From Candidatus Omnitrophota bacterium (GTDB taxonomy: Bacteria; Omnitrophota; Gorgyraeia; 2-01-FULL-45-10): DNA of 64,000 nucleotides. The position numbers and the translations under genes were made by a program. The notes beneath the pieces were generated by a model. It searched no databases. It was not told the origin of the DNA and saw nothing but the letters and a program-made list of their open reading frames with translations. Shown in pieces: positions 4,934 to 56,595 of this stretch (its first letter is position 1; each line of letters starts with the position of its first letter). Location: positions 12,164 to 76,163 of the forward strand of contig JAGVGJ010000001.1 in the NCBI GenBank assembly GCA_020057115.1, given 5' to 3'.

Positions 4934-5608
4934 ATGGATCGTTTGATGGTTATTGTTGCGGATCCGGTAAGAGCGATGCTGATCAAAGTATGGGGCTATG
5001 TCCCTACTGTTGTTGCCGCCATATTGATCCTTGTCGTGGGCTGGTTCATAGCCAAGCTCGTAGAGACGATCGTCGCAAGAGTCCTTAAGATGATCCGTCT
5101 TGACATGGCAAGCGAGAAGGCCGGGATTTCCAATATGCTGGCTCAGGGCGACATAAAGGCTACTTTGTCAGAGTTGATCGGCGCGATCATATATTGGGTG
5201 GTCATATTGATAGTTATAGCCACCGCTATGAACGCCATGAACCTGACTATAGCAGCGGATATCCTCACCAGGCTAGTCGCATACGTACCTAACATACTTG
5301 GGGCGATATTCGTAATAGTTCTCGGATCATTGCTTGCTACATTCATTGCCTCTATAGTGCGCACCACCGCAGGCAATGCCGGAATAGATAATGCGAAGAC
5401 CCTCTCCGAAGTGACGAAGATCGTCATAGTGGTATTTGCCATTATAATGGCGATAGAGCAGCTCGGGATAGGGGTAGCGATAATCAATCTTGCTGTCAGC
5501 ATAGTCCTGGCATCCATAGGGCTTGCGATAGCGATAGCATTCGGCCTCGGCTGCAAGGATCTTGCGGGCAAGGCGATAGCCGATATGTTGGGCAAGATGA
5601 AGAGATAA
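4934..5608 (+). CDS. Polytopic membrane protein with repeated 'conserved TM helix' segments (MscS-associated type)
   Basis: 224 aa with several hydrophobic helices in a repeating pattern. A hairpin plus T-run terminator follows. Confidence 0.5.
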   Translation: MDRLMVIVADPVRAMLIKVWGYVPTVVAAILILVVGWFIAKLVETIVARVLKMIRLDMASEKAGISNMLAQGDIKATLSELIGAIIYWVVILIVIATAMNAMNLTIAADILTRLVAYVPNILGAIFVIVLGSLLATFIASIVRTTAGNAGIDNAKTLSEVTKIVIVVFAIIMAIEQLGIGVAIINLAVSIVLASIGLAIAIAFGLGCKDLAGKAIADMLGKMKR

Positions 5609-5630
5609 TAGATTTTATAGTATTGATAAT

Positions 5631-5665
5631 AAGGGGCGCTTCACTCGAAGCGCCCCTTATATTTT
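5631..5665 (+). terminator. Rho-independent terminator
   Basis: aaggggcgcttcactcgaagcgcccctt hairpin followed by atatttt. Confidence 0.7.
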
Positions 5666-5706
5666 GAGGTTAGCGTAAGGTATGAAAAAATTTAGTTTTT
5701 ACCCCC

Positions 5707-5734
5707 TTGTTTTTGTTCCGCTATCAGGTATAGT
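5707..5734 (+). promoter_or_regulatory. Candidate promoter (TTGTTT-16-TATAGT) for the riboswitch-containing transcript
   Basis: -35 at 5707-5712 and -10 at 5729-5734. Confidence 0.3.
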
Positions 5735-5762
5735 TATATTGTCGGAAGAAAAGCTCTTTATA

Positions 5763-5852
5763 AACTGATCAAAGGTAAACCCGGTGAAAGCCGGCGTCAC
5801 AAAACTATAGGGTCTAAATCTCTGGAGACAGGGACAAGACAGCCAGTTGCCG
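5763..5852 (+). promoter_or_regulatory. Candidate c-di-GMP-I (GEMM) riboswitch aptamer
   Basis: GGTAAAC then a ccggt-GAAA-gccgg hairpin (GNRA tetraloop), then CGTCACAAAAC, then GGGTCTAAAT (tetraloop-receptor-like), then GACAGCCAGTTGCC. This lines up with the GEMM-I consensus as recalled from memory, not from a run search: GGCAAACC-P1(GAAA)-GACGCAAAGCC...GGGUCUAA...AGCCnGnnGCC. Confidence 0.55.
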
Positions 5853-5885
5853 TTTAAGCTTACGTCAAAGCCTGGATTGAATATC

Positions 5886-5925
5886 GATCCCGATCTGCGT
5901 TCAAGACGTAGGTCGGGATTTTTTA
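5886..5925 (+). terminator. Intrinsic terminator; likely expression platform of the riboswitch
   Basis: 11-bp stem cccgatctgcg/cgtaggtcggg (two G-U pairs), loop ttcaaga, followed by attttttat. Confidence 0.6.
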
Positions 5926-5993
5926 TTGAGCAGATAATTTATGGAGCCCGAAGGGCGACGTAAAGTATAGGCCGAAGGCCGTCTGCGAAATAA

Positions 5994-6049
5994 TCCCGAA
6001 ATATACCGCTTAAAGGCACATAGTATGCAATACAAGATATATTTCGGGA
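5994..6049 (+). promoter_or_regulatory. 12-bp inverted repeat (TCCCGAAATATA ... TATATTTCGGGA, 32-bp spacer) upstream of the micro-ORF; candidate operator or leader hairpin
   Basis: Arms at 5994-6005 and 6038-6049. Ends about 20 nt before the ATG at 6071. Confidence 0.4.
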
Positions 6050-6070
6050 TATCACCATAAGGAGGGTTGT

Positions 6071-6172
6071 ATGGAATATAAATATGAACCAACGCAGCCG
6101 GAAGACGAAGGACAGTGCGATGAGTATTGTCCGTGCTGCGGTTATACGCAGTGCATATGCGGCAACGGATAG
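6071..6172 (+). CDS. Unannotated 33-aa Cys-rich micro-ORF (MEYKYEPTQPEDEGQCDEYCPCCGYTQCICGNG)
   Basis: Strong SD AAGGAGGG ending 4 nt before the ATG. Acidic N-terminal half and a C-terminal half with 6 Cys (CxxxCxCCxxxxCxC). Absent from the ORF track because it is under 60 aa. Confidence 0.45.
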   Translation: MEYKYEPTQPEDEGQCDEYCPCCGYTQCICGNG

Positions 6173-6199
6173 CATCATAAAATTTTCTTCGCCTTAGTT

Positions 6200-6400
6200 C
6201 GGCGCCCCACCCAATGGTAGGTCTGTCGCTTGACGTTCGTTCGGATTAGCCATCCTCACTCACTCCGGAAAAATTTTGATGGCCGGTCAACCCTGACTAT
6301 AAGCAAAACTATAGACAGGTTTGCCCGGCCTTTCTATATCGGCATAAAGTATCAAAATTTTTCAACGGCCGCTCCAGACCCACCATTGGGTTGGGCGCCG
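6200..6400. repeat. 26-bp terminal-inverted-repeat-bounded ~200-bp element with an internal 22-bp hairpin (MITE-like or structured RNA)
   Basis: cggcgccccacccaatggtaggtctg at 6200-6225 against cagacccaccattgggttgggcgccg at 6375-6400 (2 mismatches). Internal arms ggccggtcaaccctgactatag / ctatagacaggtttgcccggcc. Confidence 0.5.
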
Positions 6401-6579
6401 GCCTATGTCCTTATGGCAAGAACAAACCCCGAACCCAATTTAGCACATTGAAAATGTTAGGCCTTTTGGAAGTAGAAAAATGGTTATATTTAACAATTTT
6501 TTGATAATAAAAGGACCGAGGATGTTTGAGGCCTCCTCCGGAGGCCGAGTTCCGCAAGCCGCCGTAGTATTCACCAGGC

Positions 6580-6614
6580 GGCAGCCCCCGAAGGGGGCTG
6601 GTCCCCATTTTTCT
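6580..6614 (+). terminator. GC-rich hairpin plus T-run (terminator-like; possible 3' end of a small RNA)
   Basis: agcccccgaagggggct hairpin followed by ggtccccatttttc. A second hairpin, ggcctcctccggaggcc, lies just upstream. Confidence 0.35.
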
Positions 6615-6793
6615 ACTGAACAAAAGGCCGACCCTAGAGTTTAATTAGAGGGGGAACATTTTCAGTGATAAATTGGGTTCAGGGTTTGGGATATCTCGTA
6701 TAGAGTGCGGGATATCCCTACGTTCGCGTAAGATACCCCGCCTTTTTGGAACACAGGTATCTCGAGAGGCCCGCCTTAAGATGCGTGAAATTT

Positions 6794-6825
6794 TGGTTTC
6801 GAGCCGCATGCTTTTGTGTTAGAAT
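6794..6825 (+). promoter_or_regulatory. Candidate extended -10 promoter (TGtTAGAAT) for purH
   Basis: TG at 6817-6818 and TAGAAT at 6820-6825. RBS GGAGG and GTG start at 6850. Confidence 0.3.
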
Positions 6826-6849: not shown

Positions 6850-8433
6850 GTGAAGGTAAGGCGCGCGCTTATAAGCGTTTCGGATAAGGCCGGACTTGAA
6901 GAGCTGGTCAAGGCATTGAATAAATTCAATGTCGAGATACTTTCAACGGGCGGGACCGCAAAGGCCATAAGGGCGCTTGATATACCGGTTAAGGATGTTT
7001 CGGAATATACCGGGTTCCCGGAGATGCTTGACGGAAGAGTAAAGACGCTTCATCCCAAGATACACGGCGGCCTATTGGCCCTAAGAGACTCTAAAGAGCA
7101 TATGGATACCGCCAAGAAGCATGATATCGGCATGATCGACATGGTCGTCGTCAATCTGTATCCATTCGAGAAAACCGTGGCAAAGCCAGGAGTGAAGCTC
7201 GAAGAGGCGATAGAGAATATAGATATAGGCGGGCCGTCCATGCTTAGGAGCGCGGCGAAGAATCACCGGTCTGTCTGCGTTATATGCGACCCGGCGGATT
7301 ACGGCAGGGTGATCGAAGAGCTGGAGAGGTCCGGCGGCAGCATGTCGGAAGCTCTTTTGACAGAGCTTGGGATCAAGGTGTTCGGCAGGACCGCAGAATA
7401 TGACGCGGCGATATATAATTATCTCACGAAAAATACGAGCCAGGGGCCAGGGGCCAGGGGCCAGGGTCCAGAAGAATTTCCAGAAGTACTGAGCCTGAGT
7501 TTCAAGAAGCTACAGGACTTAAGATACGGCGAGAATCCGCACCAGAAGGCCGCGTTCTATAGAGATGCCTCCATAAATGAATCGAGCGTAGCCGATTCCG
7601 TCCAGCTCCACGGAAAAGAGCTATCATTCAATAATATAATAGACCTTAATGCCGCGCTTGAGATCGTAAAAGAGTTCGACGAGCCGGCGGCCGCGATAAT
7701 AAAACACACAAACCCCTGCGGCGCAGCGACAGCAAAGACTTTAAAAGAAGCGTATCTCAATGCGCTCGACTGCGACCGCTTGAGCGCTTTTGGGAGCATA
7801 GTAGGGTTCAATAGAACCGTCGACATGGAACTTGCAAAAACGATACTGGAGGAGGCTGATTTCGTCGAATGCATGATCGCCCCGTCCTATGATGTAAAAG
7901 CCATCGAAGCGCTGAAGGTCAAAAAAAACCTGCGGCTTATCGAGGTGAAGAACTTTGCCGCAAAACCGTCCGGAAGCAATAAAGACATGAAGAAAGTCAC
8001 AGGCGGTCTTCTGGTGCAGGACAAGGATGCGGCGAGGATAAAGGAGCCCGATCTCAAGATAGTTACAAAGATCGCTCCCACGAAGGAAGAGATGCGCTCG
8101 CTCCTTTTCGGGTGGACCGTGGCAAAACATGTCAAGTCCAACGCGATAGTATTTTCCCAAGGCACTAAGACCATAGGCGTCGGCGCAGGCCAGATGTCGA
8201 GGGTCGACTCGGTGATGATAGCGGCAAAGAAAGCGGGATCCAGGGCCAAGGGCGCGACGCTGGCAAGCGACGCCTTCTTTCCGAAAGAGGATGGAGTTGA
8301 AGAGGCCGCCAGATCCGGCGTAAAAGCTATCATACAGCCCGGCGGGTCGATACGCGATAAAGAGGTCATCGCCTCAGCCGACAAGCTTGGCCTTGCGATG
8401 GTATTTACCGGCACCAGGCACTTCAAGCATTGA
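6850..8433 (+). CDS. purH: Bifunctional AICAR transformylase / IMP cyclohydrolase
   Basis: 527 aa with MGS-like and AICARFT domains (ISVSDKAGL..., TGGTAKA...). GTG start. Carries an in-frame GC-repeat segment at 7441-7470 (QGPGARGQGP). Confidence 0.95.
   Translation: MKVRRALISVSDKAGLEELVKALNKFNVEILSTGGTAKAIRALDIPVKDVSEYTGFPEMLDGRVKTLHPKIHGGLLALRDSKEHMDTAKKHDIGMIDMVVVNLYPFEKTVAKPGVKLEEAIENIDIGGPSMLRSAAKNHRSVCVICDPADYGRVIEELERSGGSMSEALLTELGIKVFGRTAEYDAAIYNYLTKNTSQGPGARGQGPEEFPEVLSLSFKKLQDLRYGENPHQKAAFYRDASINESSVADSVQLHGKELSFNNIIDLNAALEIVKEFDEPAAAIIKHTNPCGAATAKTLKEAYLNALDCDRLSAFGSIVGFNRTVDMELAKTILEEADFVECMIAPSYDVKAIEALKVKKNLRLIEVKNFAAKPSGSNKDMKKVTGGLLVQDKDAARIKEPDLKIVTKIAPTKEEMRSLLFGWTVAKHVKSNAIVFSQGTKTIGVGAGQMSRVDSVMIAAKKAGSRAKGATLASDAFFPKEDGVEEAARSGVKAIIQPGGSIRDKEVIASADKLGLAMVFTGTRHFKH
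7441..7470. repeat. GC-rich oligo-repeat (GGGGCCAGG x3 + GGGTCCAG) in-frame inside purH
   Basis: caggggccaggggccaggggccagggtccag, encoding a Gly/Pro/Gln-rich inter-domain linker. Confidence 0.8.
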
Positions 8434-9744: not shown

Positions 9745-11181
9745 ATGATCGATCGCAATAATACCGAAGATACTATAGCAGCGATATCGTCTCCTATCGG
9801 CGAGGGCGGGATAGGCATAGTCCGCCTGAGCGGTCCGGGAGCGCGCGATATCGCTGATAAGATATTCCTGTCTAAAATCGGCAAGAAACCGTCGACATTC
9901 AAATCACATACCATGCATTATGGCCATATCGTTTCCACCCCGGACCCCGGACCCCGGCCCCTGGAACCTGGAACCTGGACCCTGGACCCTAAGATCATCG
10001 ACGAAGTCCTCCTGACCGTTATGCGCGCCCCGAAGACATATACGAAAGAGGATATAGTCGAGATAAACTGCCATGGCGGCATCCAGGCGCTCGGAGATGT
10101 CCTGGACCTTTGTATCAAAAGGGGCGCGCGGGTAGCAGAGCCAGGCGAATTCACCAGGAGGGCATTCATTAACGGCAGGATAGACCTGGCGCAGGCGGAG
10201 GCAGTCATCGACACTATACGCGCAAAGACCGAAGGCTCCCTTTCGGTAGCCATGAGCCAGCTCGAAGGCGAGCTTTCAGGAAAAATAAACGCATTGCGGG
10301 ATAAGATCATAGGTATAGCCTCGCACGTCGAAGCATCGATAGATTTTCCGGAAGAAGAGCTGGATTTATTCACTGAAGAGACGCTCAAGAGAGTGGGCGA
10401 GGCATTGGTCGAGCTGAAGGGCCTTATAGACTCATCTCGTGAAGGCATGATATTCAGGGATGGCATCCTCGCAGTGATATGCGGCAAGCCCAATGCCGGC
10501 AAATCTAGCCTCATGAACCTCCTTCTTAAAAGGGACAGGGTGATAGTGACCCCGATACCGGGGACTACGCGCGATGCCGTGGAGGAGATGATAAATTTAA
10601 AAGGCATACCGATAAGGCTTGTCGATACCGCAGGGATAGCTGACACCAAAGATGTCATTGAAAAAGAAGGCATGAGGCGATCTAAAAACTATCTCGACAG
10701 GTCTGACGTCGCGCTTCTGGTGTTGGATGGCTCGACTGAGCTGGACAGGGAGGACCTGGATATAATAAAATTGGTAGAGAAAAAGAAAAAAGTTGTTATA
10801 ATAAACAAGACAGACCTGTCTCCCGCAATAAGTGCAAAAGATGTGAAGGCGTATTTTAAGGACGAGCATATAATCGAGATATCTGTCGAAAAGAGAAAGA
10901 ATATAGACGTCCTTGAAAAAGCGATCGTGGATCTGGTGTGGAGCGGCCGCGTCCATGATAAAGAGCATGCGATAGTCGCAAATACAAGGCATAAGGCGCT
11001 CATCGAAAAGGCCTATAATAATATGGGCGCCGTCAAAAAGGCGATGGATAAAGGCTCCTGGCCGGAACTTGTTTCGATAGACCTCAAAGAAGCGGTCTTT
11101 AACCTTGGTCTGGTGGTCGGGAAATCAGTGTCGGACGATATATTGAATAAGATATTCGAACAATTCTGCATAGGAAAGTAG
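9745..11181 (+). CDS. mnmE: tRNA modification GTPase MnmE/TrmE
   Basis: 478 aa with G-domain GKPNAGKSSL and C-terminal CIGK. In-frame GC-repeat segment at 9947-9990 (PDPGPRPLEPGTWTLDP). Confidence 0.9.
   Translation: MIDRNNTEDTIAAISSPIGEGGIGIVRLSGPGARDIADKIFLSKIGKKPSTFKSHTMHYGHIVSTPDPGPRPLEPGTWTLDPKIIDEVLLTVMRAPKTYTKEDIVEINCHGGIQALGDVLDLCIKRGARVAEPGEFTRRAFINGRIDLAQAEAVIDTIRAKTEGSLSVAMSQLEGELSGKINALRDKIIGIASHVEASIDFPEEELDLFTEETLKRVGEALVELKGLIDSSREGMIFRDGILAVICGKPNAGKSSLMNLLLKRDRVIVTPIPGTTRDAVEEMINLKGIPIRLVDTAGIADTKDVIEKEGMRRSKNYLDRSDVALLVLDGSTELDREDLDIIKLVEKKKKVVIINKTDLSPAISAKDVKAYFKDEHIIEISVEKRKNIDVLEKAIVDLVWSGRVHDKEHAIVANTRHKALIEKAYNNMGAVKKAMDKGSWPELVSIDLKEAVFNLGLVVGKSVSDDILNKIFEQFCIGK
9947..9990. 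repeat. GC-rich oligo-repeat (opposite orientation: CCGGACCCC / CCTGGACCC units) in-frame inside mnmE
   Basis: ccccggaccccggaccccggcccctggaacctggaacctggaccctggaccct. Confidence 0.8.
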
Positions 11182-19145: not shown

Positions 19146-20306
19146 ATGGGCGCAAAAAAGAGCACGAGAGACAATGCGGCTAGAGTTCTTTTACACGTGA
19201 GCAGGATAATGAGTTCATCTCCAGAACTTGATACGGTGAATGACGCCATACTGCGGGAGTCAAGAAAGGCGCTTGGGGCTGACCACGTGTCATTGTTCCT
19301 CCTCGACCAGGAGACAGGATACCTTGACCTTATCAAGGCCGAGGGGTTTACCGCAGACCAGATAGACAACCTGAAGCTTCTCGGCAGCTGGGAGGTCATA
19401 AACGAACAGCTTGTGGAGAAGAAAAAGATCGTCGTGGCCAATGATGTCCGGAAGAGCCAGTTATTCAAGGATAAGACGCTGCCATTCTCTTCCGAGAGGC
19501 TTCCGATCCACTCATTTCTTGCCGCGCCGCTGGTAAAGGACGGCGCGACTGTCGGGGCCCTGATAGTAAGCAATAAAAAGCGGTCGAACCACCATTTTAC
19601 GAAACATGACGCGGATTTCTTGAGCACCCTCTCAAATTACATCGCCATAGCGCTTATCAGCGCCAAGCTCTACATAAAGCTGAAAGAGCTCTTCATAACC
19701 ACCGTAAAGTCCCTCGTAAAGGCTGTCGACGCCAAGGACCAGTATACTAGTGGCCATTCGGAGAGGGTGATGAAATACGCCTACACGATCGGCAAGGAGA
19801 TGGGGCTCGGCCACGATACGATGGAGAACCTGAAATTATCGAGCCTCCTGCATGATATAGGCAAGCTCGGCATAAAAGAGAGCGTTCTCTCCAAGCCCGG
19901 AAAGCTCTCCGCCCGCGAGAGGCGCCAGGTGAGCCATCATCCTGCGATCGGAGTAAAGATAGTGGATTCCATAGCCGATTCCCACAAGATAATACGGGGC
20001 ATACTCGAGCATCACGAACACTTTGACGGGAAGGGTTACCCGAACGGGCTTAAGGCAGGCGAGATATCGCTGGAAGGGCGGATAATAGCCGTTGCCGATA
20101 CATTCGACGCCATGACCACAGCCAGGCCGTACAACAGGAAATATTCGCCCGAAGAAGCGCGCCTTATGGTGAAGAAGGGCTCGGGGACGCAGTTCGATCC
20201 CCATGTGGTGCGGGTTTTTATGAGGTCATATTCGAAACATCCGGAAGTCTGGCAGGCTCTGGCATGGGCGGGACACGGCCTGGCCGAGGGCGTTGACATT
20301 TGGTAG
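19146..20306 (+). CDS. GAF-domain HD-GYP phosphodiesterase (c-di-GMP)
   Basis: HDIGKLGI and HHEHFDGKGYPNGL motifs. Confidence 0.8.
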   Translation: MGAKKSTRDNAARVLLHVSRIMSSSPELDTVNDAILRESRKALGADHVSLFLLDQETGYLDLIKAEGFTADQIDNLKLLGSWEVINEQLVEKKKIVVANDVRKSQLFKDKTLPFSSERLPIHSFLAAPLVKDGATVGALIVSNKKRSNHHFTKHDADFLSTLSNYIAIALISAKLYIKLKELFITTVKSLVKAVDAKDQYTSGHSERVMKYAYTIGKEMGLGHDTMENLKLSSLLHDIGKLGIKESVLSKPGKLSARERRQVSHHPAIGVKIVDSIADSHKIIRGILEHHEHFDGKGYPNGLKAGEISLEGRIIAVADTFDAMTTARPYNRKYSPEEARLMVKKGSGTQFDPHVVRVFMRSYSKHPEVWQALAWAGHGLAEGVDIW

Positions 20307-45654: not shown

Positions 45655-45794
45655 CCCTCTCGGGATGGGTAAGGTGTCTTTCCGCGAACGCTCCATTCTC
45701 GGAGGGAATGTCGCTCGGAAGGCCGCAATTTTCGGTGAAAAATCGCGGCCTTCGACGTCGCTCCAAGACACCTTACCCATCCCTCGGGGGCCCC
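45655..45794. repeat. Palindromic repeat element, copy C (same orientation as A)
   Basis: cgggatgggtaaggtgtc...cttcgacgtcgctccaagacaccttacccatccctcg, about 90% identical to copy A. Confidence 0.8.
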
Positions 45795-45871
45795 GCATCG
45801 AGGACCGAAAAAGTAGGAGGGTGGAACTGGAGGGGGAGATTTACTTCTTGAATTATTTCACGGACCGTACT

Positions 45872-46711
45872 ATGATATTTCGTGATATGGGGATATTTGA
45901 GAAAGCGCAGATAGATTTTCTCACCGGGTTCTTCTTAAGGGAATCCTTCGGCCAGTTCCTCGAAAAGGCTATGCGCGAGGCCACGGCCACAAGCGGCGTA
46001 GTTACGCTTGCGCTAGTTGACCTTGACCACTTCAAAAATTTCAACGATAAATTCGGCCATGACTTCGGCGACGAGATCCTGAAGTATTCCGCCAGCACCA
46101 TCAGGCTCACTATGGACGAGAACCAGACCTATTTCTTCCGTTACGGAGGCGATGAATTTATCGTGGTCTTTGCAGGCAAGACGCAGAAAGAGGCCCTCCA
46201 GCTGTTAAAATACTGCAGGCATAACCTCCTCCACAGGCCTTTCCTCTTAAAGAATAAATTCCAGAAGATCACCATGAGTATCGGCGTCGCAAGCTTCCCG
46301 CATGACGCCCAGACCGTGGAGGACCTGATCGCGAAGGCTGATAATGCCATGTACTATTCCAAACGCCACGGACGCAACCGCATAACAATGTGGAGCTCTA
46401 TAAGCCATCTCAAGGCGCGAAATTATTTTATCCTGTTCGGCACCCTGGCCATCATGGTGCTTTCCACTTTCGTAGCGGCATATGTGCCGCCGATCAAAGA
46501 AAGCATAATGGCCTTTATCGGTAACATCAAAGAGCTCCGAAAGGTCTCTTTTGACAAGATCGTGCTTAAGAGCGGCGCTGTGTTTGAAGGCAGGATAGTG
46601 AACGAGGATGCCACTACTATATTTTTGCAATTGAACCTAAAAGAGGGGGAAGGGTCGCTCAAGCTTGACAAGTCTAAGGTGTCAAAGATAATACGCGCCA
46701 AATCTCGTTAG
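45872..46711 (+). CDS. GGDEF-domain diguanylate cyclase with a C-terminal TM helix and ~90-aa tail
   Basis: RYGGDEF motif. Start set at ATG 45872 because the track ORF extends upstream into the palindromic repeat. Promoter TTGAAT-17-TATGAT immediately upstream, so possibly leaderless. Confidence 0.7.
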   Translation: MIFRDMGIFEKAQIDFLTGFFLRESFGQFLEKAMREATATSGVVTLALVDLDHFKNFNDKFGHDFGDEILKYSASTIRLTMDENQTYFFRYGGDEFIVVFAGKTQKEALQLLKYCRHNLLHRPFLLKNKFQKITMSIGVASFPHDAQTVEDLIAKADNAMYYSKRHGRNRITMWSSISHLKARNYFILFGTLAIMVLSTFVAAYVPPIKESIMAFIGNIKELRKVSFDKIVLKSGAVFEGRIVNEDATTIFLQLNLKEGEGSLKLDKSKVSKIIRAKSR

Positions 46712-48070: not shown

Positions 48071-51000
48071 ATGGCAGGACCCTACAGCAGGCTATTCGAA
48101 TTCACCAGAGACGGCATATACAGCTACACGTTTGCCGACGGGAAGATACTATCCGCGAACCACGGTTTTATCAGGATCCTTGACCTCGACTGCAAGCCAC
48201 CCGAAGTCGAAGGAAGGCTCCTTAAAGACGTGATGACCTATGTCGAAAAGGAGGGTACGGTCCGGAGGCTCCTGGAAGAGAAAGGAGAACTTCATAACTA
48301 TGAATACCACTTTAAGACGCTGAAGGGCGAGGACAGGTGGGTCATCTACGATTCATTCCTTTCCGTGGATCCGGTGACCGGCGAGAGAGTGGTAGAGACG
48401 ATAGTAAAAGATATAACCGACCGTAAGAAGAAGGAAGATGAGGCCAGGCGGTACCGCGCCCATCTCGAGGAGCTTGTAAAGGAGCGCATAGAAGAGTTGA
48501 AAGCCCTCAATGAACAGTTGAGGCGCGAAGTCGCGGAGCGCAAGGAGGCGGAGGAGAGGCTTGCCAAGATAAACAGCTGCTTCCTGAAATTCGGTTCCGA
48601 CTCGCTTGAGAATATAAAGCTGTTGACAGCCCTCTTGGGCGAAACTATGGGCGCGACATGCGCCCTTTATAACCGGCTGGAAGAGGGCATGCTATGCTCT
48701 ATAGGGCAATGGAACACCCCTTCCGATTATAACGCTATCGATAAACCCGAAGGGCATTTATGCTATGACGTTATAAGGCACGGTACCGACATACCTTTCA
48801 TAGTAAATAATCTTCCGGGAACGCCTTATGCGGCTACAGATTCCAATGTAGCCAGATATAACCTGCGCACTTATGTCGGCGTGGCTGTAAAGTCCGGCGG
48901 CAGGTACATAGGCTCGCTTTGCGCTGTTTATCAGAAAGACGTCATCCTTACGGAAGACGATAAGAAGCTGATAGGGTTGATCGCCACAGCCGTGGGCATA
49001 GAGGAAGAGAGATTGAGGATGGAGGGCGACATACTTGAGTCGAAAGAGTATCTCTCCAAGATCATAAATTCTATCGGCGATCCCGTGTTCGTAAAAGACA
49101 GGCAGCATCGCCTGATACTGGTAAATGACGCCGAATGCCGTCTTGCAGGCCATTTGAGAGAAGATGTTACAGGAAAGACGGATTATGACTTCTTCCCGAA
49201 AGAGCAGGTCGACATATTCTGGAAGAAGGATGAGATGGTGTTCGAGACCGGCGAAGAGAATATAAACGAGGAGACGATCACCGATGCCCAAGGCGTGACT
49301 CACACTATCATCACGAAGAAGACGCGCTATATCGACCCGGAGGGTAATAAATTCATAGTCGGCATCATAAGGGATATAACAGACCGCAAGGCGACCGAAG
49401 AACAACTCCAACAGAACTACGATATCCAGAAAGCCGTAAACTCTCTCCTCAACCTTTCGCTAAGAGACATGCCTTTAGAGGAATTCCTTAAAAATACGCT
49501 CGACCTCATAATGTCCATCCCCAGGCTTTCGCTTGAATCGCGCGGCGGCATATTTCTGACGGAAGATCATTCTGATACCCTGAGGCTAAAGGTGCATAAC
49601 GGCCTTACCGAGCAGATACAGAAGGCATGCGGGAGCGTCCCATTCGGCAAATGTCTCTGCGGCAAGGCGGCGCTGACAAAAAAGACGCAGTTTGCCGCAT
49701 CTATCGACGAGCGTCATGAGACAACTTATGAAGGCATCATCCCTCACGGCCATTACTGCGTTCCGGTGCTATGGGCAGACAAGGTCCTCGGAGTAATAAA
49801 CTTTTACTTGAAAGAGGGGCATCCCTATAAAAAGAGTGAAGAAGATTTTCTGGTTGCCGTAGCTAACACCCTGGCCGGCGTCATAGAGCGCAAGCGCGTG
49901 GAGGAAGAACTAAAGAAGAGCGAGGCGAGTCTCGCGGAAGCCCAGAGGATAGCGCGCCTGGGGAACTGGGAGTGGGATATAAAGGCCAATAGCATAAAAT
50001 GGTCGGCCGAGGTATACCGCATATTCGGGAGAGCGCCGTCTGATTTTAACGGCACGCTCGAAGCATTCCTGGAATATATTCATCCCGCCGACAGAGGATT
50101 CGTTAAAGAAGCGTTGGATGACGCGCTGCACAAGCAAGAGAACTACTCCATAGACCACAGCATCCTGCTGCCGAACGCAGTGGAGAGGATAGTCCACGAG
50201 CAGGGAGAGATCACCTATGACGGGAACGGCGAGCCCGTGCGCATGGTAGGGACTGTCAATGACATAACCGAACGAAAGATCATGGAGGGTGAGCTCAGGA
50301 AGCATCGTGACCACCTTGAGGACTTGGTCAAGCAGCGCGCCGCCCAGATCATCGAGGTCAATGAGAGCCTCCAGCGCGAAGTCGCCGAGCGTAAGCGCGT
50401 CGAAGAGGCGTTGAGGGAGTCGGGGGAGAATTACAAGACCCTGTTCGAGCATTCTCCTATAGCGCTCTTCCAGGAAGATTGCTCCGGCATGAAGAAGTAT
50501 ATAGACAGTCTTAAGGCGACCAGCGGCGCTGACCTGAAGAAATATTTTGAAGACCATCCCGAAGTCTTAAAGGAGTGCATAGAAGCGATAAAGATAGCAG
50601 ATGCCAATAAGCAGGCCTTAATGCTTTTCGACGCGAGGGATAAAGAAGAGCTTTACAGGGCGGTCAAAAATATACTCATCGCCGATGCTTATAGCGATTT
50701 TGCGGAGGCGATCGTAGCTTCTAGCGAAGGAAAGTATGCTCTCGAACACGAGACCAGCATACATACGCTTACCGGAGCCAAGAAATATTGCACTGTCAAG
50801 ATATCGACCGTTGCGGGAAGCGAGACGACATGGGCGAAAGTATTGATATCTATGGTCGATATAACGGAGCGCAAGCTTGTAGAGGAAGCGCTCGAGATAT
50901 CGGAGGCAAACTACCGCGCCATATTCGATACGGCCAATGACGCCATATTCGTCTTTGATATTAAGACAGGGGTTATAATCGACGCCAACAGGAAGGGCTG

Positions 51001-52867
51001 CGAGATGTACTGCTATTCCAGGGACGAGATACGCTCTCTGGGCATAGACATGCTAAGTTCAGGCGAGCATATCTATACGAAAGACGGCGCGGACAGCTGG
51101 ATACAGAGAGCCTCTAACGGAGAGCCGCAGATAGTAGAGTGGCTTTCGAAAGATAAGGCCGGCCGCCTATTCTGGGTCGAGATAAACCTGCGCAGGGCCA
51201 TAGTCGGCTCCAAATACTGCCTTCTTGCGGTAGTGCGCGACATAACTGAGCGCAAAGAGTCCGAAGAGAAGCTGAGAGAGAGCGATCTCAGATTCAGGAA
51301 AGCCGTATTCGATGCGACCTTCCCGATAATGATCCATTCGGAAGACGGCGACGTCATGCTTCTCAATAAGGCCTGGACGGAATTATCCGGTTATACCCAG
51401 GAAGACATACCGACCACCTCTGTTTGGGCGGAGAAAGCCTATGGCAGTAAAAAGGCCATCGTAAAAGCCGATATCGACAAGTTGTACAAGCTGGATGAGA
51501 GGGTCAAGGAGGGCGAGTATGTCATAACCGCCAAGACCGGCGAAAAGAGGGTATGGGATTTCAGCGCCGCCCCTCTCGGGGCCCTTCCTAACGGCAAGCG
51601 TATCGTCATGTCTATGGCGATGGATATCACCGAGCGTAAGGGCGCGGAGAATCAGATCAAGGAGCTTAACAGGGAGCTCCTTAAGACGAATAACATGCTT
51701 AAGCAGCTGGCACTCAAGGATTCCCATACCGGGCTTTACGGCCACAGGTATCTGGCGGAGGCGATCCTCAAGGAATTTTCCAGGGCCAAGAGAGAGGCCA
51801 CGCCACTCTCAGTCATAATGCTCGATATCGATTATTTTAAATCGATAAACGATGTCTACGGCCATCAGTTCGGCGATATTGTTTTAAAGCAGTTCGCTGC
51901 GCACCTGAAAAAGGCGGTGCGGATATACGACATAGTCATACGTTACGGCGGAGAGGAGTTCATAATAATATCTCCGGGTTCGGACAGGGCGGGCGCCCTG
52001 GTGCTCGCCAGGAGGATATTGAATACTGTGAGCCTGGCCCGTTTTGGCGACAAAGAGCATAGCGTGAAAATGAAGATGAGCGCGGGCGCGGTCTCTTACC
52101 CGGAGGACCGGGCCGTGAAGGCCATGGACCTCGTTAATTTCGTCGACAAGATACTGAATAAGGCCAAGGAAGAAGGCGGCAACAGGGTATGCTCGTCTGT
52201 CGACATGAAGAGGCCCAAGGCATCCGTTACCATGGAAGAGGAAGAGGATATAACGGACGTAAAGCTCCTCAAAGAAAAGATAGAGAAGCTTACCAAGCGC
52301 GGCAACCAGAGCCTTATCGAGGCCATATTCGCCTTCGCGAAGACCATAGAAGTTAAGGATAATTATACGGGAGAGCATGTCGAAAAGGCCGTCCATTACG
52401 CGACCGAGATAGCCAAGGAGCTCAATCTTTCAAAGAACGAGATAGAGCTGATAAAGAAGGCCGCGGCGCTTCATGATCTCGGCAAGGTGGGGATAAGCGA
52501 TAAGATACTGCGCAAGAAGTCAAAGCTTACCGAAAAAGAGTTTGAAGAGATAAAGAGGCATTCGCAGATAGGTGTCGATATATTGAGGCCCGTCCACTTC
52601 ATGCATGACATAATACCCCTGATCCTCCACCATCATGAAAGATGGGACGGTAAAGGATATCCCGACAAGCTTAGAGGCGACGAGATACCGATCGGCGCGC
52701 GCATAATCTCCGTGTCAGACGCCTATGACGCTCTTACGTCGAACAGGCCTTACCGTAAAGCATACCGCAAGAACAAAGCCATCGAGATCATAAAGAGGGC
52801 TTCCGGGACGATGTATGACCCCAGGATCATAAATGCCTTCTTCAAAGTCCTGAAAGATGGAAAATAG
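48071..52867 (+). CDS. Large multi-domain c-di-GMP signalling protein: multiple PAS domains, GAF, coiled coils, GGDEF, HD-GYP
   Basis: 1598 aa with repeated PAS signatures, RYGGEEF (GGDEF) and HDLGKVGI...HHHERWDGKGYPD (HD-GYP). Confidence 0.85.
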   Translation: MAGPYSRLFEFTRDGIYSYTFADGKILSANHGFIRILDLDCKPPEVEGRLLKDVMTYVEKEGTVRRLLEEKGELHNYEYHFKTLKGEDRWVIYDSFLSVDPVTGERVVETIVKDITDRKKKEDEARRYRAHLEELVKERIEELKALNEQLRREVAERKEAEERLAKINSCFLKFGSDSLENIKLLTALLGETMGATCALYNRLEEGMLCSIGQWNTPSDYNAIDKPEGHLCYDVIRHGTDIPFIVNNLPGTPYAATDSNVARYNLRTYVGVAVKSGGRYIGSLCAVYQKDVILTEDDKKLIGLIATAVGIEEERLRMEGDILESKEYLSKIINSIGDPVFVKDRQHRLILVNDAECRLAGHLREDVTGKTDYDFFPKEQVDIFWKKDEMVFETGEENINEETITDAQGVTHTIITKKTRYIDPEGNKFIVGIIRDITDRKATEEQLQQNYDIQKAVNSLLNLSLRDMPLEEFLKNTLDLIMSIPRLSLESRGGIFLTEDHSDTLRLKVHNGLTEQIQKACGSVPFGKCLCGKAALTKKTQFAASIDERHETTYEGIIPHGHYCVPVLWADKVLGVINFYLKEGHPYKKSEEDFLVAVANTLAGVIERKRVEEELKKSEASLAEAQRIARLGNWEWDIKANSIKWSAEVYRIFGRAPSDFNGTLEAFLEYIHPADRGFVKEALDDALHKQENYSIDHSILLPNAVERIVHEQGEITYDGNGEPVRMVGTVNDITERKIMEGELRKHRDHLEDLVKQRAAQIIEVNESLQREVAERKRVEEALRESGENYKTLFEHSPIALFQEDCSGMKKYIDSLKATSGADLKKYFEDHPEVLKECIEAIKIADANKQALMLFDARDKEELYRAVKNILIADAYSDFAEAIVASSEGKYALEHETSIHTLTGAKKYCTVKISTVAGSETTWAKVLISMVDITERKLVEEALEISEANYRAIFDTANDAIFVFDIKTGVIIDANRKGCEMYCYSRDEIRSLGIDMLSSGEHIYTKDGADSWIQRASNGEPQIVEWLSKDKAGRLFWVEINLRRAIVGSKYCLLAVVRDITERKESEEKLRESDLRFRKAVFDATFPIMIHSEDGDVMLLNKAWTELSGYTQEDIPTTSVWAEKAYGSKKAIVKADIDKLYKLDERVKEGEYVITAKTGEKRVWDFSAAPLGALPNGKRIVMSMAMDITERKGAENQIKELNRELLKTNNMLKQLALKDSHTGLYGHRYLAEAILKEFSRAKREATPLSVIMLDIDYFKSINDVYGHQFGDIVLKQFAAHLKKAVRIYDIVIRYGGEEFIIISPGSDRAGALVLARRILNTVSLARFGDKEHSVKMKMSAGAVSYPEDRAVKAMDLVNFVDKILNKAKEEGGNRVCSSVDMKRPKASVTMEEEEDITDVKLLKEKIEKLTKRGNQSLIEAIFAFAKTIEVKDNYTGEHVEKAVHYATEIAKELNLSKNEIELIKKAAALHDLGKVGISDKILRKKSKLTEKEFEEIKRHSQIGVDILRPVHFMHDIIPLILHHHERWDGKGYPDKLRGDEIPIGARIISVSDAYDALTSNRPYRKAYRKNKAIEIIKRASGTMYDPRIINAFFKVLKDGK

Positions 52868-56351: not shown

Positions 56352-56390
56352 CCAGCTTCCCCTTTAAATTTTTCGGCCTATGGATGCCAT

Positions 56391-56515
56391 TGAGGGGTAA
56401 GGTGTCCTGGAGCGACGTCGAAGGGCGCAATCTTTCAGAGAAGATTGCGCCCTTCCGAGCGAACTTTCCTCTGGAAAGAGAGCGTTCGCGCAAGGACACC
56501 TTACCCCTCAAGGGC
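56391..56515. repeat. Palindromic repeat element, copy D (same orientation as B)
   Basis: gaggggtaaggtgtcctggagcgacgtcgaag...ccgagcgaactttcc...caaggacaccttacccctc. Confidence 0.8.
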
Positions 56516-56595
56516 TTCAAGGAGCTTCCGAAAAATTATCCCTCATTCCTATTTGACATAATATGCTTTATTATATATACTTATAATACTTAATT

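Follow-up and report, generated by a model that had tools for sequence, protein, structure and literature searches.

A c-di-GMP-I riboswitch and its probable cargo, a 33-codon cysteine-rich gene, in the genome of an Omnitrophota bacterium

Within a 64,000-nucleotide (nt) stretch of a Candidatus Omnitrophota genome (GenBank assembly GCA_020057115.1, contig JAGVGJ010000001.1, positions 12,164 to 76,163; hereafter the window, whose own numbering is used throughout), the interval 5707-6172 reads as what would be a self-contained transcription unit, composed of a weak sigma-70-type promoter, a riboswitch of the cyclic di-GMP (c-di-GMP)-I class, a terminator, a strong ribosome-binding site (RBS), and a 33-codon cysteine-rich open reading frame (the micro-ORF). 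We hold it to be highly probable, from the comparison with a homologous unit in a related genome, that the micro-ORF is a real coding gene and the cargo of the riboswitch. The explanation developed below, taken as a whole but leaving aside the direction of the switch and any partner-binding role of the peptide, we consider probable. The coordinates of all features are collected in Table 1.

An earlier, sequence-only reading of the window described an unannotated ORF with a strong RBS and six cysteines in 15 residues downstream of a riboswitch candidate, and each of these features is present as claimed. The cysteines are spaced C16-x3-C20-x-C22-C23-x4-C28-x-C30 and make up 18% of the residues, with both CxC and CC motifs, and the Shine-Dalgarno (SD) sequence precedes the start codon by 4 nt. 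As far as annotation can be tested, the description "unannotated" is also right: the exact 33-residue peptide has no called-gene record and no entry in a collection of 15 billion proteins. A conserved gene of this kind would have been overlooked because gene callers reach their length limit at ORFs of this size. Two considerations weigh against reading the ORF as a gene from its own features, namely that its length alone is within chance expectation (the same intergenic DNA holds many ORFs of 25-79 amino acids [aa]) and that the window contains about 59 combinations of an SD sequence and a start codon. Stretches with at least five cysteines in 18 residues number only five over all six frames of the 64 kb, and of these five the micro-ORF alone is also among the SD-plus-start combinations. 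What raises it above chance is cross-species conservation.

When 1.84 billion representative proteins were searched exhaustively with phmmer, a single true homologue emerged, P0122 (E value of 1.2e-6), a protein of 34 aa (MDYIDDRIDQPEDDNQSDEYCPVCGYSQCTCGNG); the other match, P0121, was rejected as spurious because it is a repeat protein. P0122 is encoded on a 4.8-kb Logan metagenome contig of a related member of the Omnitrophota (L006), in the same gene neighborhood, purH-folC-mnmE, as in the window. A 67-aa query joining both peptides yielded no homologue candidate, although short proteins are possibly not in the word index of that search, which is our guess. The two peptides are 64% identical overall and 76% identical over the last 25 residues, and the underlying DNA aligns in two blocks, the first covering the promoter-like pair, the aptamer, and the terminator (L006 4407-4645 and window 5674-5924, 76.7% nucleotide identity) and the second covering the RBS and the ORF (L006 4658-4773 and window 6059-6171, 74%).

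The sequence-only reading had proposed frame conservation and synonymous bias as a check on the ORF, and on this pair of sequences the frame is intact and third positions are favored. The codon alignment contains 30 nucleotide differences, which fall 6, 7, and 17 at the first, second, and third positions (binomial P = 0.007 for at least 17 of 30 at one position); over the C-terminal 26 codons, the corresponding numbers are 3, 4, and 12 (again P = 0.007). The single indel between the two ORFs is 3 nt long and in frame, and the ATG, the SD sequence (the same AAGGAGGG before the start codon), and the position of the stop after GNG are all retained in L006. By the Nei-Gojobori method, the ratio of nonsynonymous to synonymous divergence (dN/dS) is about 0.25/1.7, i.e., about 0.15, over the whole ORF and 0.16/1.56, i.e., about 0.10, in its C-terminal part; the N-terminal half is the least conserved part of the peptide (dN of 0.60 versus 0.16). 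Because the differences cluster at third positions, the indel is in frame, and the start, stop, and RBS are retained, the micro-ORF is very probably translated and under purifying selection, a conclusion based on two sequences. The limits of this comparison count against it: the family has only two members, and the conservation statistics amount to one pairwise comparison. Even so qualified, the homologue bears out the earlier view of the ORF as a real coding sequence, and we take the peptide to be the founder of a new small-protein family with, at present, two members.

It follows from the same evidence how the opposite possibility is to be judged, that the product under riboswitch control is a noncoding RNA, with an ORF that is incidental or only weakly translated. 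Frames 0 and +1 are both open in both genomes, about 500 nt of extremely structured sequence lie 3' of the window copy, and gene callers left the ORF uncalled in the window's own record, all of which such an RNA would accommodate. Against it stand the third-position bias (P = 0.007), the in-frame indel, the SD sequence at optimal spacing, and the kept positions of start and stop; the +1 frame, although open, has no SD sequence and would place most of the changes at second codon positions. The structured downstream region, moreover, is not conserved in L006, where the transcript would consist of little beyond riboswitch, ORF, and terminator, and we regard a noncoding RNA as very unlikely.

That a c-di-GMP riboswitch lies upstream, put forward as a candidate in the sequence-only reading, is confirmed by a match to RF01051 far above the gathering score. 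The match spans the full model (positions 1-87) and includes the GNRA (GAAA) tetraloop hairpin, and the corresponding aptamer in L006 (4497-4576) scores 59.7 bits. The base at RF01051 consensus position 11 is G in both genomes, which, under what we take to be the rule for GEMM-Ib aptamers (G for c-di-GMP and A for cyclic GMP-AMP), would presumably indicate c-di-GMP; we use this as a lead only. Downstream of the aptamer, the stem of the intrinsic terminator is kept in L006 with one compensatory change from a G-C to an A-U pair. The start codon of the micro-ORF lies about 145 nt past the T-run in the window, and riboswitch, terminator, RBS, and ORF remain linked in L006, where the whole unit is flipped. 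This linkage supports the earlier suggestion that the micro-ORF could be the riboswitch-controlled gene, and from the arrangement in both genomes it is predicted to be the sole cargo.

The putative promoter upstream of the aptamer is read from the sequence. Its hexamers and spacing are retained in L006 (TTGTTT-16-TATATT); it was not flagged by a consensus promoter scan, the -35 element being too weak, and this counts against our reading of the unit, as does the state of the expression platform described next. A candidate anti-terminator, on a direct reading, is the octamer CUUACGUC (5858-5865), which could pair with the 3' arm of the terminator (GACGUAGG, 5905-5912); ACGUCAA (5861-5867), which overlaps it, can pair with the 3' tail of the aptamer (UUGCCGU, 5846-5852). 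The level of c-di-GMP would thereby set whether the terminator forms and, hence, how far transcription reads through into the micro-ORF, and a ligand-bound aptamer would free the anti-terminator CUUACGUC, making the element an ON switch. We favor this direction with low confidence, because the platform is identical in the two genomes and covariation lends it no support.

In its layout, a full aptamer followed by a Rho-independent terminator and then by the regulated ORF, the unit resembles the c-di-GMP-I riboswitches Vc2 of Vibrio cholerae and Cd1 of Clostridioides difficile. It differs from them in its cargo, a single 33-codon gene rather than an adhesin, a pilus or flagellar operon, or a transcription factor, and in being a free-standing accessory cassette that occurs in either orientation. 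The window also encodes proteins of c-di-GMP turnover: one with GAF and HD-GYP-type HD_5 domains (19146-20306), a GGDEF protein (45665-46711), and a 1,598-aa PAS/GAF-GGDEF-HD_5 protein (48071-52867). Because these genes are in the window, the messenger sensed by the riboswitch would be made and degraded by the same organism.

Between terminator and SD sequence, the window carries an insertion of about 134 nt that has no counterpart in L006, where the RBS follows the T-run by about 10 nt and only about 20 nt separate the terminator from the start of the ORF. This lineage-specific stretch of the 5' untranslated region (UTR) holds small GC hairpins at 5946-5956 and 5970-5980 as well as the perfect inverted repeat that the sequence-only reading had reported as 12 bp long; the repeat is real and one base longer, at 13 bp. 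By our own estimate, about 0.002 perfect 13-mer pairs within 100 nt of each other would be expected by chance in 1.3 kb. In the predicted fold, the repeat forms a 13-bp stem whose end lies 8 nt upstream of the SD sequence (the segment 5985-6075 folds at -21.4 kcal/mol), and its outer stem ATCCCGA/TCGGGAT, together with a CAAGA motif, resembles the terminator hairpin, of which it may be a decayed partial duplication. As an RNA hairpin, it may affect mRNA stability in the lineage of the window. The further proposal that the palindrome is a repressor operator or flanks a promoter is not supported. Since it is located in an insertion missing from L006, it is not a conserved operator; the 32-nt spacer is atypical of dimeric operators, a consensus scan found no promoter between the arms, and, to judge from L006, the palindrome appears dispensable for the unit.

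The sequence GGGATATC occurs three times in this region, at 6046, 6689, and 6710. One of these copies falls within GGGATATCCC (6709-6718), a palindrome that is perfect over 10 bp and precedes the purH promoter by about 100 nt; it may bind a protein or be what is left of a repeat.

The proteins encoded next to the cassette have their relatives in metagenome-assembled genomes of Candidatus Omnitrophota/Omnitrophica. Because purH has its own conserved promoter, it is not the target of the riboswitch and the micro-ORF is not a purH leader. The cassette of L006 faces away from purH, its promoter end abutting the purH promoter region. At its other (3') end, the last 30 nt of L006, including an 18-nt palindrome, are common to the end of L005, another contig of that sample; L005 has an MscS-like gene 80% identical to that of the window and ends just past it. 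From this overlap, we infer for L006 an order of MscS-like gene (forward), bidirectional terminator, micro-ORF and riboswitch (both reversed), and purH (forward), in which the cassette has the opposite orientation to that in the window. Six other relatives have the MscS-like gene and purH in the same order with neither riboswitch nor micro-ORF between them. We regard the cassette, on this comparative evidence, as an autonomous accessory element at a variable intergenic spot.

The same arrangement bears on whether the ORF encodes a cysteine-sensing leader peptide, at whose Cys codons ribosomes would stall and so control downstream genes, as in the model of cysteine attenuation offered by mycobacterial polycysteine small ORFs (bioRxiv 10.1101/834739). 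The six Cys codons, including an adjacent pair, and the position upstream of a structured region and of purH and folC would suit an attenuator. In L006, however, the ORF and its neighbor are convergent, with a bidirectional terminator between them, so that there is nothing downstream to attenuate; the CC pair of the window peptide is VC in P0122; purH has its own promoter; and the flanking genes are not cysteine related. An attenuator is, to our minds, exceedingly improbable.

Opposite orientation in two genomes, absence from six relatives, and short A/T-rich repeats at the boundaries hint that the cassette is mobile or invertible and inserts in the space separating a terminator from the promoter that follows. 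Flanking repeats were considered as proof of mobility and judged insufficient, the boundary similarity being only A/T-rich and of low complexity, and ancestral presence followed by loss and one inversion would fit the facts equally well. A mobile cassette whose peptide is a new second-messenger effector, either a metal-loaded mini-protein that switches a partner such as a pilus, secretion, or envelope machine or a product like a chalkophore or another modified peptide, matured by a distant enzyme, seems to us distinctly unlikely. At the same MscS-purH spot, two of the relatives without a cassette carry long hairpins that have end pieces in common, though in inverted order and orientation (L001 5754-5787 and 6181-6205 versus L003 6041-6074 and 5763-5787); inversion of segments seems to recur here, as with the riboswitch cassette.

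Turning to the peptide itself, the columns invariant between its two members are M1, Y3, Q-P-E-D, Q, D-E-Y-C-P, C-G-Y, Q-C, and C-G-N-G. Because C16 and C22 of the window peptide are replaced in P0122 (by Ser and Val, respectively), the conserved cysteine set in these two sequences consists of four of the six, arranged as C-P-x-C-G-Y-x-Q-C-x-C-G. The N-terminal half of the window peptide is acidic (7 D/E and 1 K) and precedes a C terminus formed by the conserved CPxCGYxQCxCGNG; P0122 has 9 D/E, with 1 K/R as in the window peptide, and the net charge of the micro-protein is about -6.

We lean toward reading CPxCGYxQCxCGNG as a Cys4 metal site, in which four thiolates would hold one metal ion, Zn or Fe, in the manner of rubredoxins or zinc knuckles. 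The C20-P-x-C23-G knuckle is invariant in both members, and a profile of both peptides searched against the PDB matches rubrerythrin (E value of 0.0045) and rubredoxin locally, at their CPxCG knuckles; a match to Starmaker in the same database was rejected as spurious, being due to acidic repeats. P0122 has, in addition, a subthreshold match to A2L_zn_ribbon (E value of 0.03, 14.5 bits against a cutoff of 22.9). Several results weigh against a metal site: the window peptide matches no Pfam or NCBIfam family at threshold, AlphaFold2 run on the two-sequence alignment reaches a confidence score (pLDDT) of 55 with no confident fold, and the cysteine pairs stand four residues apart, the second being C28-x-C30, which is not the classical zinc-ribbon geometry. 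A zinc ribbon proper would have a second CxxC knuckle on a separate beta-hairpin and a family match, and the micro-protein has neither.

Among known Fe(Cys)4 knuckles, DEYCPxCGY locally matches "CPICGYT" and "EYCPVCG" of rubrerythrin and also rubredoxin; in those domains, however, two CxxC knuckles separated by about 12-30 residues sit on a beta scaffold, a fold for which the micro-protein has too few residues. A likeness in format is offered by the one-domain CPxCG zinc-finger proteins of haloarchaea, such as Brz of Halobacterium salinarum (PMC2253796) and members of the small proteome of Haloferax volcanii (PMC10117724). Like the micro-protein, these are tiny, stand-alone proteins in which Cys pairs including CPxCG are the sole recognizable feature; annotation frequently overlooks them, and some are regulatory. 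They are archaeal, usually 40-70 aa long, and carry two CPxCG-type knuckles with a longer spacer, whereas the micro-protein is bacterial, has one CPxCG followed four residues on by CxCG, and would be riboswitch controlled.

The residues that are conserved also decide how far two other functions named in the sequence-only reading can be followed. Of the proposed metallothionein-like peptide, the metal-binding part is closer to the conserved residues, and the metallothionein part finds no match to the family model. A mini-metallothionein or metal buffer would sequester or deliver a soft metal (Zn, Cd, or Cu(I)) instead of forming a structural finger that binds a partner, with c-di-GMP linking metal handling to lifestyle. 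The cysteine content and the CxC and CC motifs of the window peptide speak for it, as does a free-standing, acidic, Cys-rich protein of 43 aa on a metagenome contig (L225) that has the CPxCGYxxCxCG motif and its own promoter. CGYTQCIC aligns at 5 of 8 positions with CGHTGCNC, which we take, as a lead only, to be the metal-ligand segment at the C terminus of cyanobacterial SmtA. The micro-protein shares with SmtA/BmtA small size, richness in cysteine, and the C-terminal CG(H/Y)TxCxC spacing, but it does not match the bacterial metallothionein family in Pfam (Metallothio_Pro), and its four conserved cysteines, enough for one ion, and lack of His ligands contrast with the cluster of nine Cys and two His used by the SmtA type. 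The surrounding genes include neither a metal-responsive regulator nor a transporter, and the controlling signal is c-di-GMP rather than a metal. We consider a metallothionein unlikely.

The other function, a precursor of a ribosomally synthesized and posttranslationally modified peptide (RiPP) with a six-Cys core, is not supported: C16 and C22 differ between the two members, and no precursor model is matched. On this account, the acidic N-terminal half would be a leader and the Cys-rich core would be modified by a distant maturase, giving a product of the SCIFF/ranthipeptide, thiopeptide, or methanobactin kind. The short length, the acidic N terminus, and the conserved Cys-rich C terminus would fit, since some RiPP families have conserved cores, and the best single-sequence match in the PDB is the tricyclic peptide MS-271, at a nonsignificant E value of 0.85. 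SCIFF/ranthipeptide precursors are likewise short six-Cys peptides; the window peptide differs from them in having no model match, no adjacent radical-SAM maturase, and a cysteine count that is not conserved. NCBIfam and Pfam precursor models gave no match even at E values of up to 10. The earlier remark that no maturase is adjacent can be extended to the whole window: among the 41 large ORFs scanned (those taken as genes, leaving out overlapping ones, MnmE, and FolE), which encode housekeeping and envelope functions as well as the c-di-GMP turnover proteins, there is no radical-SAM, YcaO, LanB/C/M, or DUF692/MbnB-type enzyme, and the L006 contig has no maturase either. No partner gene accompanies the cassette when it moves or inverts, two of the six cysteines vary while a classical CPxCG metal knuckle is conserved, and conservation is lowest in the supposed leader (dN of 0.60 versus 0.16), the opposite of most RiPP families. 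A RiPP precursor is therefore highly improbable in our view, and the Cys4 metal site is the reading that we carry forward.

The distribution of the motif was examined by degenerate DNA scans of genome, metagenome, and viral contigs for C-P-x-C-G-[YF]-x2-C-x-C-G, which gave 105 matches in 185,579 species-representative genomes, at least 120 in metagenome contigs, and 7 in viral contigs. None of the scan matches listed is a further homologue of the micro-ORF; all are chance frames or occurrences of the short motif in unrelated proteins. The family appears to be confined to a narrow lineage of Omnitrophota, against which it must be said that the metagenome count is a lower bound and that further, divergent members are possible.

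In unrelated proteins, CPxCG[YF]xxCxCG occurs at the extreme C terminus, and a tandem of CxxCGxxPCxC and CPxCGYxxCxCG occurs inside proteins resembling the R subunits of type I restriction systems (HsdR-like proteins of L013, L010, L052, and L108). Further contigs with the mini-motif are L100, L035, and L194 (MazG-like), L040 (identical to L179), L094, L120 (identical to L243), L205, L215, and L172, and L225. The mini-motif is not covered by any Pfam family, and it may be an undescribed metal-binding module of 11 residues.

Table 1. Features of the riboswitch cassette and its surroundings in the window, and the corresponding intergenic spacers of relatives
Feature	Position or length	Strand	Remarks
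MscS-like membrane protein gene	4934-5608		upstream gene; own terminator hairpin at 5629-5660
Putative cassette promoter	5707-5734	+	-35-like TTGTTT (5707-5712), 16-nt spacer, -10 TATAGT (5729-5734); read from sequence
c-di-GMP-I (GEMM-I) aptamer, RF01051	5764-5854	+	64.6 bits versus gathering score of 35; E value of 9e-12
Intrinsic terminator, putative expression platform	5886-5926	+	16-pair stem and T-run; terminator scan
Lineage-specific 5' UTR insertion	5927-6058	+	within the 134-nt segment (about 5925-6058) without counterpart in L006
Perfect inverted repeat, ATCCCGAAATATA / TATATTTCGGGAT	5993-6005 / 6038-6050	+	13/13 complementary, 32-nt spacer
Shine-Dalgarno sequence, AAGGAGGG	6059-6066	+	4 nt 5' of ATG at 6071
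Micro-ORF, 33 aa, MEYKYEPTQPEDEGQCDEYCPCCGYTQCICGNG	6071-6172	+	stop TAG at 6170-6172; ORF listing
Two adjacent long imperfect hairpins	6185-6420, 6423-6688		nested sub-hairpins; between micro-ORF and purH promoter
purH promoter	6797-6825	+	TTTCGA-17-TAGAAT, TGTG extended -10; block kept in L001, L003, L006, L232, L236, and L237
purH	6850-8433		downstream gene; followed by folC, mnmE, and folE
MscS-like/purH spacer, L001 (GCA_041643025.1)	612 nt		no cassette
MscS-like/purH spacer, L003	487 nt		no cassette
MscS-like/purH spacer, L232-L235	273 nt		no cassette
MscS-like/purH spacer, L236 (GCA_016929115.1)	295 nt		no cassette
MscS-like/purH spacer, L237	109 nt		no cassette; promoter directly after terminator

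The two long hairpins between the micro-ORF and the purH promoter (6185-6688) have fold z-scores of -11.4 on the forward strand and -13.3 on the reverse strand. The region has no Rfam match, is present in a single copy in the window, and has no counterpart in L006 or in the other relatives examined. A role as a structured RNA belonging to the riboswitch-controlled unit was considered and rejected, the region being missing from L006 and the genome having other families of hairpin repeats. It probably lies outside the conserved cassette, and it could be DNA resembling a miniature inverted-repeat transposable element (MITE) or a structured 3' UTR.

Elsewhere in the window, a hairpin element of about 136 nt (33-nt arms and a 70-nt loop) is found in four copies (1595-1730, 1952-2081, 45655-45790, and 56383-56518), at least three of which lie between large ORFs, and the genome seems to be rich in palindromic MITE-like repeats. 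In three relatives (L001 2154-2345, L003 2188-2379, and L005 89-280), a gene between those for a glycosyltransferase and a ribonucleotide reductase encodes a 63-aa protein with a match to MamI (PF26391); the corresponding interval of the window (about 1570-2560) contains hairpin repeats instead. The MnmE homologue of the window (9745-11181) has a Pro/Gly-rich insertion (STPDPGPRPLEPGTWTLDPK) near residue 65 and is 478 aa long, compared with 457-469 aa in relatives.

As to what the micro-protein does in the cell, an acidic mini-protein with one bound metal ion might serve as a metal-stabilized partner-binding module or as a metal-binding effector of the c-di-GMP response, with no part as a precursor for tailoring; for the partner-binding role, our confidence is low. 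Riboswitches for c-di-GMP are known, but to our knowledge their regulons in uncultivated phyla are not, and as far as the literature could be found, no c-di-GMP riboswitch has been described with a protein of about 33 residues as its only cargo. The case described here combines a known riboswitch class with a new small-protein family in an unusually minimal, autonomous arrangement. If the explanation holds, the unit would be a minimal natural output module for c-di-GMP, with promoter, sensor, terminator, and ORF accommodated in about 365 nt; a new family of four-Cys micro-proteins would join the effectors of this messenger, and c-di-GMP signaling in the Omnitrophota would have a concrete handle.

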